Notes: a model not told the origin generated them from the letters alone. A stretch of 64,000 nucleotides of DNA from Escherichia coli (GCF_003334385.1 NZ_QOWN01000007.1), one strand, 5' to 3'. Positions 9,417 through 29,596 are shown, numbered from the stretch's first letter. A program made the numbers and translations.

Positions 9417-10316
9417 TTAAATTGCTGTAGTCGTAAACAATTCGTTGAGCATTCGTTTCACGCCAACCTGCCAGTCAGGCAAGACAAGCGCAAAGTTCTG
9501 CTGAAATTTTTCTGTATTAAGGCGAGAGTTATGTGGACGACGAGCTGGTGTAGGATAGGCTGATGTTGGTACTGCGTTGAGCTTGTTGAGCGCAAGGGGA
9601 ATGCCTGCTTTGCGCGCCTCTTCAAAAACAAGCGCAGCATAATCGTGCCAGGTTGTGGTACCACTGGCTACCAAATGGTACAAACCTGCGACTTCTAGCT
9701 TATTCAATGCCACACGAATGGCATGCGCCGTACAATCAGCCAGCAGCTCAGCACCTGTTGGTGCACCAAACTGATCGTTAATAACCGCTAATTCTTCACG
9801 CTCTTTTGCCAGACGTAACATCGTTTTGGCGAAGTTATTTCCTTTACCTGCATAGACCCAGCTGGTCCGGAAAATAAGGTGCTTCGCACAATGCTCTTGT
9901 AATGCTTTTTCTCCAGCTAACTTGGTTACACCGTAAACATTTAGCGGTGCGGTTGCATCCGTCTCCAGCCATGGCGTGTCGCCATTTCCAGGGAATACGT
10001 AGTCAGTTGAGTAATGAATTACCCAAGCCCCAACTTCATTAGCCGCTTTTGCAATTGATTCAACGCTAGTCGCATTGAGTAATTGTGCAAATTCGGGTTC
10101 TGACTCAGCCTTATCTACTGCGGTGTGAGCCGCAGCATTAACAATAACATCAGGGCGAATTTTTTTGACGGTTTCAGCCACACCTTCAGGATTACTAAAA
10201 TCACCACAATAATCAGTGGAGTGAACATCAAGAGCAATCAAATTACCCAAAGGTGCCAGAGCACGCTGTAGTTCCCAACCTACCTGCCCTGTTTTGCCGA
10301 AAAGGAGAATATTCAT
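9417..10316 (-). CDS. rmlD: dTDP-4-dehydrorhamnose reductase
   Basis: 299 aa. [18 protein letters not shown]... RmlD family. Position between rmlB and rmlA. Confidence 0.95.
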   Translation of the reverse strand: MNILLFGKTGQVGWELQRALAPLGNLIALDVHSTDYCGDFSNPEGVAETVKKIRPDVIVNAAAHTAVDKAESEPEFAQLLNATSVESIAKAANEVGAWVIHYSTDYVFPGNGDTPWLETDATAPLNVYGVTKLAGEKALQEHCAKHLIFRTSWVYAGKGNNFAKTMLRLAKEREELAVINDQFGAPTGAELLADCTAHAIRVALNKLEVAGLYHLVASGTTTWHDYAALVFEEARKAGIPLALNKLNAVPTSAYPTPARRPHNSRLNTEKFQQNFALVLPDWQVGVKRMLNELFTTTAI

Positions 10317-11401
10317 TACTGGCGGCCCTCATAGTTCTGTTCAATCCACGATTGATAGGCACCACTTTTCACATTCTCGACCCATTTTGCATTAGCCAGG
10401 TACCATTCCACCGTTTTACGAATCCCACTCTCAAACGTTTCCTGCGGTTTCCAGCCCAATTCGCGGCTAATCTTCTCTGCATCAATCGCATAACGGCGAT
10501 CGTGTCCCGGGCGATCGGCAACATAAGTAATTTGCTCGCGGTAAGATTTCTCTTTCGGTACAATCTCATCCAACAAATCACAAATAGTGAGCACTACATC
10601 GATGTTTTTCTTTTCGTTGTGTCCACCAATGTTATAAGTTTCACCCGCTTTACCTTCAGTAACGACTGTATATAACGCTCGAGCATGATCCTCGACATAC
10701 AACCAATCGCGAATTTGATCCCCTTTACCATAAATAGGTAATGCTTTACCTTCCAGAGCATTCAGAATAACCAATGGAATCAATTTTTCCGGGAAATGAT
10801 AAGGACCATAATTGTTAGAGCAGTTAGTCACAATGGTCGGTAAACCATAGGTTCGTTTCCACGCGCGGACTAAATGATCGCTTGATGCTTTCGAAGCAGA
10901 ATATGGGCTACTTGGTGCGTAAGCTGTTGTCTCAGTAAATAAGGGTAATTCTTCTTTATTATTTACTTCGTCAGGATGAGGCAGATCGCCATAAACTTCG
11001 TCAGTAGAAATATGATGAAAACGGAAGCTATTTTTCTTGTCGCCATCAAGAGCAGACCAGTAATTGCGAGCCGCTTCCAAAAGGACATAAGTACCAACAA
11101 TATTGGTTTCAATAAATGCCGCAGGGCCTGTAATTGAACGATCCACATGGCTTTCAGCAGCCAAGTGCATCACTGCATCCGGCTGATGCTGAGCAAAAAT
11201 CCGTGCCATTGCAGCAGCATCGCAAATATCCGCATGTTCAAAAACATAGCGTTCAGAGTCAGAAACATCAGCAAGTGATTCCAGGTTTCCGGCGTACGTT
11301 AATTTATCGACATTAACAACACTATCCTGAGTATTATTTATAATGTGACGAACTACAGCAGAACCAATAAATCCTGCGCCACCAGTAACAAGTATTTTCA
11401 C
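10316..11401 (-). CDS. rmlB: dTDP-glucose 4,6-dehydratase
   Basis: 361 aa. [14 protein letters not shown]...[15 protein letters not shown]. First gene downstream of the JUMPstart. Confidence 0.95.
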
Positions 11402-11477
11402 TTAATTTATTCCATATTACTTCAGAGCATGCTGTGAAATAAGCGGCTCTCAGTTTGATTAATAGAGGTATTAATGC

Positions 11478-11516
11478 ACGCTACCGCCCCTGGCTTTACA
11501 GCTACCAGAGCACTGC
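11478..11516 (-). promoter_or_regulatory. JUMPstart element containing the ops site (RfaH-dependent antitermination) upstream of the O-antigen operon
   Basis: The minus strand reads CAGTGCTCTGGTAGCTGTAAAGCCAGGGGCGGTAGCGTG. The 3' GGCGGTAGCGTG (11478-11489) matches the ops consensus GGCGGTAGnnTG. It lies in the galF-rmlB gap. Confidence 0.85.
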
Positions 11517-11773: not shown

Positions 11774-12667
11774 TTATTCGCTTAACAGCTTCTCAATACC
11801 CTTACGGAACTTCGCCCCTTCTTTGAGGTTGCGTAGTCCATACTTCACAAACGCCTGCATATAACCCATTTTTTTACCGCAGTCGTAGCTGTCACCAGTC
11901 ATCAGCATTGCATCAACAGACTGTTTTTTCGCCAGTTCGGCAATGGCATCTGTCAGTTGGATACGTCCCCATGCACCTGGCTGAGTGCGTTCAAGTTCCG
12001 GCCAAATATCTGCAGAAAGCACATAGCGACCAACGGCCATGATGTCTGAGTCCAGCGTCTGCGGCTGATCCGGTTTTTCGATAAATTCAACAATGCGGCT
12101 GACTTTGCCTTCGCGATCCAGCGGTTCTTTGGTCTGAATGACGGAGTATTCAGAGAGATCGCCCGGCATACGTTTTGCCAGCACCTGGCTGCGTCCCGTT
12201 TCGTTGAAGCGCGCAATCATGGCTGCAAGGTTGTAGCGCAGCGGGTCGGCGCTGGCATCGTCGATCACAACGTCTGGCAGCACCACGACAAATGGGTTGT
12301 CACCAATGGCGGGTCGTGCACACAAAATGGAGTGGCCTAAACCTAAAGGTTCGCCCTGACGCACGTTCATAATGGTCACGCCCGGTGGACAGATGGACTG
12401 CACTTCCGCAAGCAGTTGACGCTTCACGCGCTGCTCAAGGAGAGATTCTAATTCATATGAGGTGTCGAAGTGGTTTTCGACCGCGTTCTTGGACGCGTGA
12501 GTTACCAGGAGGATTTCTTTGATCCCTGCAGCCACAATCTCGTCAACAATGTACTGAATCATTGGCTTGTCGACGATCGGTAGCATCTCTTTGGGAATCG
12601 CCTTAGTGGCAGGCAACATATGCATCCCAAGACCCGCTACAGGAATAACTGCTTTTAAATTCGTCAT
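11774..12667 (-). CDS. galF: UTP-glucose-1-phosphate uridylyltransferase-like regulatory subunit GalF
   Basis: The track ORF extends to 12679. The recognised GalF N-terminus [32 protein letters not shown] starts at 12667 (297 aa). Confidence 0.95.
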
Positions 12668-12841
12668 TATTTCATCCACCTGTAAAATGGTTGCTGAATT
12701 ATAACTTGTTCGATTTTTTTCGCCAGCATCAATTACCCTGAATTGATTACTGAATTACTTGTGATGTTACGCCGCTTCGTTGTGGATTGCAGTAGCATTG
12801 TTCCTAAGTATGGCTCCATTTTTCCAGGAATGGTCGCAAAT

Positions 12842-14236
12842 CTACTCCCTCCGTTCCGGCAATCTAAAGTTAATCTTTTCCACATTAACAATATGGTGAT
12901 TTATCCTGTCGATATCGACGGAGCTTTGCCCTTTTTCATTCACCGCATGAACATTTGCAAGTGACAGCAGTGTTTCTTTTTTCGCCATAAAGACGCCGCG
13001 AACGTCTTTGCGCATGTCGAAGTTCATGCTCAATGCTGGTCCAACTGAGGATTCCTGCATCACCTTGATATTTCGCATAAAAAGATGTTGCGGTTTGTTG
13101 TGTAACTCCAGCGACGCACGCTTCATCTCAATGTTAGTCAGCGCCACAAAGGAGACAGCATTCCCGGCAGAGATTTGGATACCGCGCAATTTATAAGCAA
13201 GATGGGTGTTATCCATTTGAATATTATTCACTCGGAAATTTTGCGGTATCGAGAGATATTTGCCTTTAATTACCCCATAGCCGATTAACATCCCAGCGCT
13301 ATTAATCATTTCAATATTATCAATCACGAAATTGTCACAACCGTAAATAGCGACCGTCGCGTTATCAATACCTGCTTTCTTACTGAAATCCGGCGTGATA
13401 TTGCGGGCTTTGATATTACGAATAACAAAATGTTTACCATTTTCAACATGGATCAACTGCCGACAATCCGATCCCGTGATATTCGCCACGACAAAGTTTT
13501 TCACTGCCTGGTCTTCCGGGTAGTTATTATCATAAGTACTCCCCGCAAGGCCTATGCCGATGCCCCAGTTGATTTTGCCGTTAGTACAGTTGATGCGCTC
13601 GATGACATGGTCAGATATCAAAATATCATGGTCGTTAATCGCCACGTTCCATTCAATAGCGTCCCCCTGTAAGTCGCTGAACTTACAATTGGTGATGTTG
13701 GCACCGATAATCTGGTTATGAAATCCCTGGCGTAAGATGGCGTAATTAGCGTGGCTAACGGTGAGGTTATCGATGATCAGGTTGCGCATGACCCGTTTGT
13801 TTTTGCCACCAATATAAATCTGCGTTACCGGGCCAAAGCCGCTCATCGCCAGCCCTTTGATGGTGCAGTCAGAGCCGCGCACATCCAGGGTGATGTTATG
13901 CATACTGCCGCCCTTCTCCCCTGTCACCTGGCTGCCGTCCTGTAAGACAAATCGCCCTCTGCCGTTGCCGCGCAGGCTTCCAAGGATGTGTAACGTTTTG
14001 CCAGGAGGAATGAAGATGCCGGTGTTGATATTGTCACAAACGAATCCAGCAGGCACGACGACCGTTTGCCCTTCGCTGAAGGCTTGTTTAAATGAGGCGA
14101 TCCAGTCGTGAGGGGTGTAGTCGTTAATGTTAACGCTTTGTCGGGCGGGAAGCGCGCGGGCGAAAGGGGTATGGAGGAAGGCAAGCGCGGAGCTTGCCGT
14201 CAGGAAGGTGCGTCGGGAGAGTTTTTTAAATGGCAT
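12842..14236 (-). CDS. wcaM: Colanic acid biosynthesis protein WcaM (Tat-signal, beta-helix-like repeats)
   Basis: 464 aa. N-terminus [28 protein letters not shown] carries a twin-arginine motif. Recognisable WcaM sequence. Confidence 0.93.
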
Positions 14237-14246
14237 ACGTTCTCCT

Positions 14247-15467
14247 CTATAAAGCTTGCAGCAAGCTGGCGAGTTCTCGATTGATCACCTGCTGGTTAAA
14301 ATCGTGTTCGACTTTTTCGCGAGCACGTTTGACGACAGGAGCCAGTTCGTCGGTGTCCAGTTGGCTAAACGCCGCCAGTCGTTGCGCCAATGCGCGAGCA
14401 TCGTTCTCAGGCACCAGCCAGCCGGATTTATCGGCCTCCACCAGTTCCGGTATTCCACTATGCAGAGTAGAAACCACCGGAATGCCGACCGCCATCGCTT
14501 CCATTAGCGCCACCGGAATACCTTCCATATCGCCGTCCGCACCCGTTACCGAAGGCAGCAGGAAGACATCCGCGTCGTCGAGCATCGCTTTCACTTCATG
14601 GCTCGGTTTAAAACCCGGCATCTCCACCACATCTTCCAGTTGATATTGTTCGATAAGCGTGCGCAGGCGTCGTTCCCACGGGCCAATGCCGAGAATGCGA
14701 TAGCGAAATGCCACGCCCTGCTCTTTCAACTGACGGCAGGCTTCAATCGCCACATGCAGACCTTTTTTCTCGGTTAAGCGTGCGACGGAAATGATTTCCA
14801 GCGGCGTTGCAGGCGCTTTCACCGGACGCGGGCTAAAGCGCGTCATGTCCACACCCATACGCGATACGGCAATTTTTTCCCTCGGGCAGCCCATTTTTTG
14901 CAGCCTTCCGGCCCACAAATCGCTTATCGGTAACATCAGATCGCCACGGCGAAACAGTTGCTGATATTCGGGAGTGTAATGGTTGAGCACTTCCCGACTG
15001 GAAATATCAATGCCGTGGAAAATAGTGGCAATTTTGCCGCGAATGACACCCAGTTCGCGTAGTTTTGCTGCGGTTACCCCCGCAGGGCCAAAATGAGCGA
15101 TGAACACATCGGCGCGAAACGGTGTTGCGACCTGACCACAAATGGCAGACAAAATCAGGTTCCGCGACTCGGCACCATAGCGTTTGAGGTTGAGCGCCTG
15201 CCAGGTATTTTTACGATGAATGCCGCGTAAGGTCTGGCTGGCGCGGTGGCGCAGTTTCGCAACTTTGCCTTGTGGTTCGTCCTGTAACCAGCGGGTTCTG
15301 GCAGCAAGGTTGTATTTCGTCCATGCCGCGTGGGTGTTCTGGGTGTCGCCTTTTTGCAGCGCGACAATCTCCACCTCAAAGCCCATATCAATAAACGCGG
15401 TAATTTGATTGAGGACGAAGGTTTCCGAAGACAGCGGAAATTTCAGTAAAAAGAAGCCGACCTTCAT
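14247..15467 (-). CDS. wcaL: Colanic acid glycosyltransferase WcaL (GT4)
   Basis: 406 aa. GT4 E-x7-E region [17 protein letters not shown]. Position in the wca operon. Confidence 0.95.
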
Positions 15468-16744: not shown

Positions 16745-16805
16745 TTTTTCCTCATAAATTTGATGCCAGGTGAGGCTGTGTTTGTTGTGTTCGTTGCCGT
16801 TTTTT

Positions 16806-17281
16806 GCCTGATGCGACGCTGGCGCGTCTTATCAGGCCTACAAGACCCGAGCACAGAACCGTAGGCCGGATAAGGCGTTCACGCCGCATCCGGCATTCAG
16901 TGCCTGATGCGACGCTGACGCGTCTTATCAGGCCTACAGGTCCCGAGCACAGAACCGTAGGATGGATAAGGCGTTCACGCCGCATCCGGCATTCAGTGCC
17001 TGATGCGACGCTGGCGCGTCTTATCAGGCCTACAAGACCCGAGCACAGAACCGTAGGCCGGATAAGGCGTTTTACGCCGCATCCGGCATTCAGTGCCTGA
17101 TGCGACGCTGGCGCGTCTTATCGGGCCTACAAGATCCAAGCCCTGAACCGTAGGCCGGATAAGGCGTTCACGCCGCATCCGGCATTCAGTGCCTGATGCG
17201 ACGCTGACGCGTCTTATCAGGCCTACAGGTCCCGAGCACAGAACCGTAGGATGGATAAGGCGTTTTACGCTGCACCCGGCA
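16806..17281. repeat. BIME array: five tandem units of about 96 bp, each a pair of inverted REP sequences
   Basis: GCCTGATGCGACGCTG(G/A)CGCGTCTTATCAGGCCTAC starts at 16806, 16902, 16998, 17095 and 17191. Each copy is followed by GTAGG(CC/AT)GGATAAGGCGTT(C/T)ACGCCGCATCCGGCA in the opposite orientation. Confidence 0.9.
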
Positions 17282-28378: not shown

Positions 28379-29596
28379 TTACCTCGTAATATTTAACGCT
28401 TTTCGCAAAATAAACGGACAGACGATTAAAAATGCATATTCCGGGCTAAATATCGAACCGGTAAAAAACAGCGATACCGGAGTAAAAAGATATAATTGCA
28501 CGCGAAAATTGCGGTTATCACCAAAAGCGTTGATCATCATTTTTATCACTTTCCCCATGTACCACAGCGATAAAAACACCGCGAACCAGGAAAAATAAAT
28601 AATCAGCAGATACAAACCATTGTCTATGGTTTTTCCGACATCCGCACCGTTAAATATTCCGAATGATGCGACATATTCATAAAGTGAGCCAAATCTGACT
28701 ACACCGTCAATATGGGTCAAAGAATAACCGACCATCACCAGCGGACCGACAATACGATAATACGATGACGATCCTTCCGTACCTAAATCGCCCAGACGGG
28801 TGGAAATATAAGGAAATGCGATTACCACACCAACCAGGAATACAGCCAGAGAAATCAATGCTAACGGTAACTTTTTCTTAATCGCCTCTTTATTCAGATA
28901 TTGAAATGCCCACTCCAGCAAATAAAACAGGATAAAGGTCATAACCCCTGAAAACGATCCGGATAATATTATCCCTGCGAGAATCATAGCATCTGTTTTA
29001 GGCGTTTTGATACCAAACTGTTTGATGCTGAGCCAAATTGAGATTAATGCCAGAGCGAAAAATGCCGGTTCGAAATAAAGTGCTGTCGTGCGCTTGCCGC
29101 CGAATTTAATGAAATTCAGCACATAGCTGTTGCTGTAAATCAGATATTTCGAAATCGACTCCATAATACTGCTGCCACCGGTGAGGATAATTTGCGCCAT
29201 CTCCACCGCCGCCAGCGCCACCACCAGCCCGACCACCAGATAAAAGAAACGTAATATCTTGCGATGGTTGTGTGGCGAAATCGTTTTAAAGCGAATACTC
29301 CACACCATGCCAATAATGATCACAATATAGACAAACAGCATGGTTGAAGTGACGTATTTACTGGCATCCAACGACTGACCAAACAGGTAGTTAAACGCCG
29401 TGAGTCCCGCACCAATCCCTAAGGCAATAATCAATTTTTTAACGCTGATGCGTTCTAAAAACAGCAGTAATAAGACAGGTAAAAAAGTGACGATGGTGAT
29501 GGGGAAACTTTCGCCAAGCTGGGCGATTTTGACGTTAACCAGCAGGTAGATCAGCGGCAGCAGCAGGTAGCTACAGATTCTGATAGAAGTTGACAT
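28379..29596 (-). CDS. wcaD: Colanic acid polymerase WcaD
   Basis: The track ORF extends to 29668. The recognised start [21 protein letters not shown] is at 29596 (405 aa), overlapping the wcaC end by 26 nt. Polytopic membrane protein. Confidence 0.92.

Follow-up and report, generated by a model that had tools for sequence, protein, structure and literature searches.

The last gene of the Escherichia coli colanic acid operon, wcaM, encodes a β-helix homolog of phage colanidases with a predicted Tat leader: a candidate colanic acid endo-glycanase

Several exopolysaccharide (EPS) loci encode, together with the genes for synthesis, an enzyme that degrades the cell's own product. AlgL, PslG, BcsZ and PelA are such self-polysaccharide glycanases or lyases, and they, like RbmB, clear, trim or release polymer outside the cytoplasm, where they are delivered by the Sec rather than the twin-arginine translocation (Tat) pathway in the cases familiar to us. 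Closer to the protein considered here are WceF of Pantoea stewartii and Erwinia amylovora AmsF, the latter of which we take to be a WceF-like glycanase of an EPS cluster with a tailspike-like fold. WceF slowly hydrolyzes its own EPS, stewartan, into repeat units, and the chains become longer when it is knocked out (PMC7949094). A third point of reference is gp150 of phage Phi92 (PDB 6E0V/6E0W), which, according to a 2026 article that cites Xu et al. 2025, hydrolyzes colanic acid at the glucose-fucose (Glc-Fuc) bond and frees repeat units (PMC13450770). Here we compare with these systems the product of wcaM, the gene with which the colanic acid (wca) operon ends, as found in a 64,000-nucleotide stretch of Escherichia coli DNA (GCF_003334385.1 NZ_QOWN01000007.1), hereafter the window.

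The wcaM open reading frame (ORF) occupies exactly positions 12842-14236 of the window on the minus strand, starts with ATG and encodes 464 residues; that this minus-strand ORF is an artefact was considered and rejected, and the plus strand of the same interval translates into a sequence full of stops. The protein is certainly WcaM. It is covered from residue 1 to residue 464 by two NCBIfam models, NF007517 (1025.9 bits against a cut-off of 808) and TIGR04004 (974.1 bits against 794.6), annotated wcaM genes match its gene at 100% identity, and precomputed annotations assign all of its orthologs to PF27800, which is WcaM. A preliminary description of this stretch, made without stating the strand, had placed WcaM last in the colanic acid operon, and these scores, the identity and the gene order bear it out. 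By megablast, wcaM is matched in 4640 of 5426 complete E. coli genomes. The remaining 786 of 5426 lack such a match, one genome holds two copies, and one match is plasmid-borne; wcaM has been described as missing or truncated in group 1 capsule strains (PMC6128206). For the function of this protein we lean, as the account we find on balance probable, toward an endo-glycanase of colanic acid that is exported by Tat into the periplasm and is the analog of WceF in Pantoea.

The foundation of this account is that WcaM is a sequence homolog of phage colanidases, a kinship that extends beyond analogy of fold. A phmmer search against the PDB retrieves gp150 (6E0V) with an E value of 1.5e-24, and BLASTP aligns the two proteins at 33% identity over 190 residues (E 3e-27). 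PHROG 6117, the 'colanic acid degradation' family of gp150, matches WcaM over residues 86-460 (E 1.1e-52), and a tblastn search with WcaM finds matches in 250 phage records, many of which are labeled colanidase. Another phage enzyme, NST1, for which we claim no kinship to the WcaM family, also frees repeat units from colanic acid, measured as reducing sugar (PMC9143390).

The homology has clear architectural limits. Whereas gp150 is a protein of 804 residues with a virion adaptor and a C-terminal Ig-like domain (TSP_Ig-like), and tailspike relatives carry Phage_T7_tail adaptors, WcaM has neither and aligns with the central body of gp150 only, lacking both the N-terminal virion adaptor and the C-terminal tailspike domain. 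It is thus a homolog of the catalytic body of a tailspike and not a tailspike; it further differs from gp150 in being chromosomal, operon-encoded and equipped with a Tat leader. For the closer tailspike-like relatives, the alignment takes in all of mature WcaM, at 36-40% identity. Our first homolog search returned orthologs of at least 74% identity only, and the distant members came from HMMER, run exhaustively against 1.84 billion representative proteins, among which just 190 are relatives of WcaM. They fall into two size classes. The short relatives (~370-500 residues) are bacterial, and most of them, distant ones included, have twin-arginine leaders; a loose motif test finds one in 16 of 25 short full-length representatives, the rest having Sec-type-like, lipoprotein-like or truncated starts. 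The long relatives (600-1000 residues) are leaderless and are real tailspikes, with N-terminal phage tail-fibre adaptors (e.g. Phage_T7_tail, E 1e-36) and a common C-terminal tailspike module; none of the phage proteins has a twin-arginine leader. In a rough neighbor-joining tree, which is drawn without support values and is suggestive only, bacterial and phage clades interleave, and three phage proteins (P0126, P0128 and P0131) stand nearer to WcaM than does the clade of gp150.

A few entries of the family stand apart. One metagenomic protein of 605 residues (P0182) is a hybrid in which a twin-arginine leader (SRRKFI) and a WcaM-type β-helix are joined to the C-terminal module otherwise confined to tailspikes. 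Another, of 761 residues (P0084), consists of a 95%-identical WcaM fused to WcaJ-type domains and is probably a mis-assembly or a gene-calling artefact, and the WcaM entries assigned to Bacillus amyloliquefaciens and Vagococcus sp. (P0337 and P0054/L054) probably derive from contaminated or mislabeled assemblies.

The predicted fold agrees with the homology. The preliminary description had quoted seven peptide blocks, the twin-arginine leader among them, and had likened the repeated ones to those of a parallel β-helix. All seven (7/7) are present, at residues 7, 114, 152, 179, 205, 247 and 303, and each of the six blocks outside the leader lies on predicted β-strands of an AlphaFold2 model that forms a right-handed parallel β-helix (predicted template modeling score 0.81). 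Structure prediction followed by a Foldseek search, the check which that description had proposed, leads back to the colanidases: the best match is the gp150 colanidase tailspike (E 4.7e-9, TM 0.65), the second-best match has an E value of 6e-5, and the top matches among viral models are colanidase tailspikes. RbmB of Vibrio cholerae (PDB 9OZD), itself a β-helix, is also among the fold matches. A local Pfam scan of WcaM finds no β-helix family, its sole match being a sub-threshold one to TAT_signal.

Conservation within the family singles out a small set of polar residues as candidates for catalysis. It was counted in 76 full-length representatives, bacterial and phage, and in 24 WcaM orthologs of 74-98% identity. 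H263, E265 and G225 are invariant in all of them (76/76 and 24/24), while D192 is found in 75, E195 in 71 and N197 in 73 of the 76 representatives, and all three are invariant in the orthologs. The D/E/H/E set is shared by gp150, as D387, E390, H461 and E463, in which the HVE motif is recognizable as well. The conserved motifs recur at roughly one-rung spacing (192/195, 224/225, 263/265), a pattern that would be expected of an active-site stripe running along the groove of the β-helix, and, judged by this conservation and spacing, D192, E195, H263 and E265 may line the substrate site. The trimming or depolymerizing activity on colanic acid that the preliminary description had offered as a testable idea gains support from the colanidase homology and from these common residues, and the function continues to be a prediction.

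Export by the Tat pathway is predicted from the N-terminal leader. The sequence S7-R8-R9-T10-F11-L12-T13 fits the S/T-R-R-x-F-L-K consensus, and R8 and R9 are invariant across the 24 orthologs. The h-region that follows is mildly hydrophobic, with a mean Kyte-Doolittle value of 1.1, and the c-region, P-F-A-R-A, provides an A-x-A site with a basic residue at -2. Confidence of the structural model (predicted local distance difference test, pLDDT) is low over residues 1-28, as expected of a leader. WcaM is listed among the predicted or accepted Tat substrates of E. coli and Salmonella (PMC7549933, PMC8262268, PMC3027627), and the exact peptide of residues 1-28 is given as its Tat signal in one of these lists (PMC7549933). 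The twin-arginine leader noticed in the preliminary description is borne out by the motif, by its conservation and by the literature.

Set against the described systems, WcaM combines features of two of them. With gp150 it shares the β-helix body, the candidate residues and, in expectation, the substrate. Like WceF, it is encoded within an enterobacterial EPS cluster of the Wzx/Wzy-dependent type, has a Tat signal, is built as a right-handed β-helix and has a homolog among the phage enzymes that depolymerize the EPS in question; WceF is 25% identical to the phiEa1h tailspike (PMC7949094). WceF differs in having 736 residues, three domains, a proven trimeric state and a demonstrated activity, where that of WcaM is predicted. 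WcaM was also considered as a member of the WceF sequence family, and this was rejected: the WcaM family profile, run against all PDB sequences, hits gp150 and, weakly, GH28, GH55 and GH82 proteins, and not WceF, and WceF is not among the top 50-60 fold matches of WcaM. The kinship with WceF is an analogy and not membership; the WceF paper mentions neither WcaM nor colanic acid (PMC7949094). AlgL, PslG, BcsZ, PelA and RbmB resemble WcaM in that each is encoded with the synthesis genes of the polymer it degrades, but they belong to unrelated sequence families, mostly of other folds and chemistries (lyases, GH8, GH39-like), and none of them is known to act on colanic acid.

The setting of the family in other genomes points in the same direction. 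A peptide pattern built on the N-W224-G225-I-G-I-G motif finds relatives in 199 of ~185,000 species genomes (one genome per species), nearly all of them Enterobacteriaceae, throughout which wcaM is fixed at the end of the wca operon with 74-98% identity. The distant short members examined come from a K-type locus of Raoultella, from Bradyrhizobium, from Sphingomonas and from a soil metagenome, and all four lie within Wzx/Wzy-dependent polysaccharide clusters, not in prophages, with Wzc/Wza-type export genes, initiating transferases and glycosyltransferases around them. A WcaD-type polymerase accompanies the WcaM-family gene in 4/4 of these distant loci, on which the observed co-occurrence rests, as the 10-kb flanks used in the genome-wide scan stop short of wcaD in enteric operons. 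The Raoultella planticola locus holds a 41%-identical WcaM paralog with a twin-arginine leader (P0123; L003 10001-11344), between gnd and a wcaJ-like gene; the capsule genes around it include gmd/fcl/gmm, a WcaD-type polymerase and a pyruvyl transferase, and the locus probably makes a colanic acid-like capsule. A comparison case is Klebsiella K108, cited in PMC13385381.

These observations can be assembled into a provisional mechanism. Synthesized last among the products of the wca operon, which is under Rcs control, WcaM would fold into its right-handed β-helix in the cytoplasm, from which the Tat pathway would export the folded protein; cleavage by signal peptidase after A26-R27-A28 would then leave it free in the periplasm. 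There it may bind colanic acid in the groove of the helix and hydrolyze a bond of the backbone, with the carboxylates D192/E195 and E265 as catalysts and H263 assisting. In the annotated operon, WcaJ starts each repeat with glucose-1-phosphate, and in Wzy-type polymerization the inter-repeat bond runs from the initiating sugar. Since gp150 cuts between glucose and fucose and glucose is the sugar with which WcaJ begins the repeats, the target of WcaM is most probably the linkage formed by the polymerase WcaD. We infer that wcaD is the functional counterpart of wcaM, its product joining the repeats at the bond where cleavage by WcaM is predicted. WcaM would thus undo steps of WcaD, which could limit chain length, clear polymer that has stalled in the periplasm, or both, a role also proposed for Pantoea WceF with stewartan and for AlgL-type enzymes in their own systems. 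To our knowledge, it is still unexplained how Wzy-dependent secreted polysaccharides are released from their undecaprenyl-diphosphate anchor. A broader proposal, which is speculative and in our estimate rather unlikely, is that WcaM-type glycanases and WcaD-type polymerases are matched pairs in which each glycanase cuts the inter-repeat bond of its partner (Glc to Fuc in colanic acid), sets chain length and perhaps frees the polymer from that anchor, the host family serving also as a reservoir from which colanidase modules have been repeatedly exchanged with phages.

Several points weigh against the endo-glycanase account. The literature searched (most subscription journals lay outside its scope) contains no assay of WcaM and, in agreement with the preliminary description, assigns it no enzymatic role, nor did it yield data on the size of colanic acid in a wcaM mutant. 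The Pfam TAT_signal model scores below its gathering threshold on WcaM (E 0.14; 12.6 vs 22.7 bits), a weak negative given the shortness of the motif and of the hidden Markov model that describes it. WcaM is devoid of the terminal domains of tailspikes and could be weak or inactive if its active site or stability needs a trimer built by them. Furthermore, a K-12-derived overproducer still yields colanic acid of 8.7 MDa, and an added phage hydrolase is needed to shrink the polymer (PMC9143390). If wcaM is intact in this strain, as we presume, WcaM is not an efficient bulk depolymerase; the large polymer implies that it is at best slow or spatially restricted, as is WceF. Lastly, work on Salmonella biofilms treats ΔwcaM strains as colanic acid-deficient (PMC8171120). 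Such a deficiency, if that label is correct, points to a role in production, which is compatible with a clearing enzyme and would not be predicted from simple trimming.

It is from these last points that the alternative which survives best, unlikely as we hold it to be, draws its strength: WcaM may be a lectin-like protein of the periplasm, without catalysis, in which the fold of a colanidase survives and the activity does not. It would bind nascent colanic acid and hand the polymer from the polymerase to Wza/Wzc export, or organize the capsule, and would in this sense be a genuine factor of biosynthesis and assembly. All databases name WcaM a biosynthesis protein, the Salmonella mutants are used as colanic acid-deficient, the 8.7 MDa polymer comes from a strain that presumably retains wcaM (PMC9143390), and WceF itself agglutinates with its own polymer in lectin-like fashion while its catalysis is very slow (PMC7949094). 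Against such a binder stands the nature of what has been conserved. The polar residues that stay invariant from phage enzymes to bacterial members form a D/E/H/E set such as glycosidase centers typically have, strict in 24/24 orthologs, whereas a pure binder would be expected to have lost it in some lineages. The Salmonella evidence considered here, moreover, is a label for ΔwcaM in a strain table, with a citation of Adcox et al. 2016.

That WcaM acts on colanic acid by another chemistry, as a lyase at the side-chain glucuronic acid or as an epimerase or other modifying enzyme in the manner of AlgG/AlgE4, PL6 enzymes, RbmB or the K5 lyase, we regard as improbable. The β-helix fold alone cannot separate these chemistries, and colanic acid does contain a uronic acid; yet the sequence relatives of WcaM are colanidases, of which gp150 is reported to be a Glc-Fuc hydrolase, and the NST1 enzyme likewise frees repeat units, as reducing sugar (PMC9143390). 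No lysine or arginine is invariant in the family to serve as the base of a lyase, the best being R259 (84%) and R169 (61%), which, as far as conservation goes, argues against a lyase. An AlgG-type epimerase was considered on account of a DPHD-like N-D-H-D at residues 201-204 and rejected, as this sequence is not conserved even among the orthologs.

We give very little weight to the view that WcaM is a domesticated tailspike fragment with little or no role in colanic acid, or that its main role is phage-related, such as thinning or reshaping a capsule used as receptor by colanidase phages. The interleaving of bacterial and phage members in the rough tree and the rarity of the family, both among representative proteins and among species genomes, would fit a phage origin of this kind. 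However, the fixed place of wcaM at the operon end in Enterobacteriaceae, its co-expression with wza (PMC8117528), the conserved Tat leader that the phage proteins lack, and the residence of independent distant relatives in EPS clusters rather than prophages all speak against this view. Equally little credence attaches to an active glycanase whose substrate would be an envelope glycan other than colanic acid, such as O-antigen, enterobacterial common antigen or the lipid-linked intermediates of a different pathway. In favor of it, wcaM lies where the wca genes adjoin galF and the O-antigen cluster, and substrate specificity is unreadable from sequence. Against it, WcaM is conserved together with the wca genes, whereas the O-antigen clusters beside an identical wcaM vary, as a comparison of the window with strain MSI001 shows; its phage homologs are specific for colanic acid, and its relatives co-occur with WcaD-type polymerases and with the fucose and pyruvyl-transferase genes typical of colanic acid-like polymers.

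The endo-glycanase account, if true, would complete a pathway. WcaM is the one gene product of the E. coli K-12 colanic acid operon without a stated role, and one account, for example, gives roles to every wca product except WcaM (PMC9143390). Both wcaM, with its Tat leader, and the family to which it belongs are already catalogued, and the colanidase homology is implicit in phage annotations and PHROGs; within the literature searched, no paper draws the colanidase conclusion for WcaM. The prediction is concrete, with named catalytic candidates and a named bond, and would give WceF and the phiEa1h tailspike a counterpart, as the second host/phage pair in which related β-helix enzymes are directed at one polymer. 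Should WcaM trim or clear colanic acid, the Salmonella ΔwcaM strains (PMC8171120) may make altered rather than absent polymer. There is also a lead for biotechnology, in that low-molecular-weight colanic acid is now made with added phage enzyme (PMC9143390, PMC13450770). Finally, an annotation error comes to light: several phage tailspikes, among them those of H22 (PP777464.1) and H30 (MW822008.1) and BFVD entry A0A0S1S1H9, are named "colanic acid biosynthesis protein (WcaM)", a label evidently copied from the bacterial gene and opposite to what the enzyme is likely to do.

Coordinates of wcaM, its functional parts and its operon neighbors in the window
Feature	Position	Strand	Basis and remarks
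wcaM coding sequence	12842..14236	-	464 codons plus stop codon at 12842-12844; ORF list, NCBIfam, identity to annotated wcaM
Predicted Tat signal peptide, residues 1-28	14153..14236	-	Predicted cleavage after A26-R27-A28; sequence features, low pLDDT, PMC7549933
Twin-arginine motif S7-R8-R9-T10-F11-L12-T13	14198..14218	-	Regular-expression match; R8/R9 invariant in 24 orthologs
Mature protein (predicted), residues 29-464	12845..14152	-	N-terminal cap helix, then right-handed parallel β-helix
Core closest to Phi92 gp150 colanidase	13181..13744	-	WcaM 165-352 vs gp150 360-556, 33% identity; phmmer, BLASTP
G-D192-A-I-E195-W-N197-V motif	13643..13666	-	Candidate catalytic carboxylates D192, E195, corresponding to gp150 D387, E390
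N-W224-G225-I-G-I-G motif	13550..13570	-	Next rung; gp150 N420-G426; G225 76/76, W224 ~90%
I-H263-V-E265 motif	13442..13453	-	Candidate catalytic His and Glu, corresponding to gp150 H461, E463
AGGAG ribosome-binding site	14242..14246	-	6-10 nucleotides upstream of the wcaM ATG; upstream sequence
wcaL (glycosyltransferase), upstream operon neighbor	14247..15467	-	NCBIfam TIGR04005, 883 bits
wcaD, colanic acid polymerase	28379..29596	-	NCBIfam TIGR04010, 870 bits; match starts at ORF residue 25
galF, downstream neighbor, marks end of wca cluster	11774..12679	-	NCBIfam TIGR01105, 689 bits; annotated context

The immediate surroundings of wcaM are those of a terminal operon gene. The stop codon of wcaL (14247-14249) ends 10 nucleotides upstream of the wcaM ATG, with AGGAG between the two; as this stop lies directly upstream of the AGGAG, wcaM closes the operon in tight linkage with wcaL, and its transcript has been found to follow that of wza, with which it is co-expressed (PMC8117528). 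The remainder of the wca operon, wcaD included, lies farther upstream on the same strand. Between wcaM and galF a simple scan finds no convincing terminator. The order wzxC-wcaK-wcaL-wcaM-galF is the same in the window and in strain MSI001. Beyond galF the two part, the window continuing with rmlB/rmlD-type genes (9417-11401) and MSI001 with a NeuB/LegC-type nonulosonic acid O-antigen cluster (L001 14896-23655). O-antigen genes that differ beside a 100% identical wcaM indicate an O-antigen recombination boundary near wcaM/galF.

Two further elements of the window were noted in this region. Between galF and rmlB, at 11477-11515 on the minus strand, a JUMPstart RNA element (RF01707, 60 bits) marks the start of the O-antigen operon. 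The wcaK-wzxC intergenic region (16782-17263) is made up of tandem repeats of ~96 nucleotides, and Rfam recognizes in it four plus-strand copies of naRNA4 (RF02564, a nucleoid-associated RNA of the REP325 type), at 16864-16934, 16960-17030, 17056-17127 and 17153-17223, which score 72-80 bits against a gathering score of 59.5. Spurious ORFs in these repeats translate into a peptide repeated three times.

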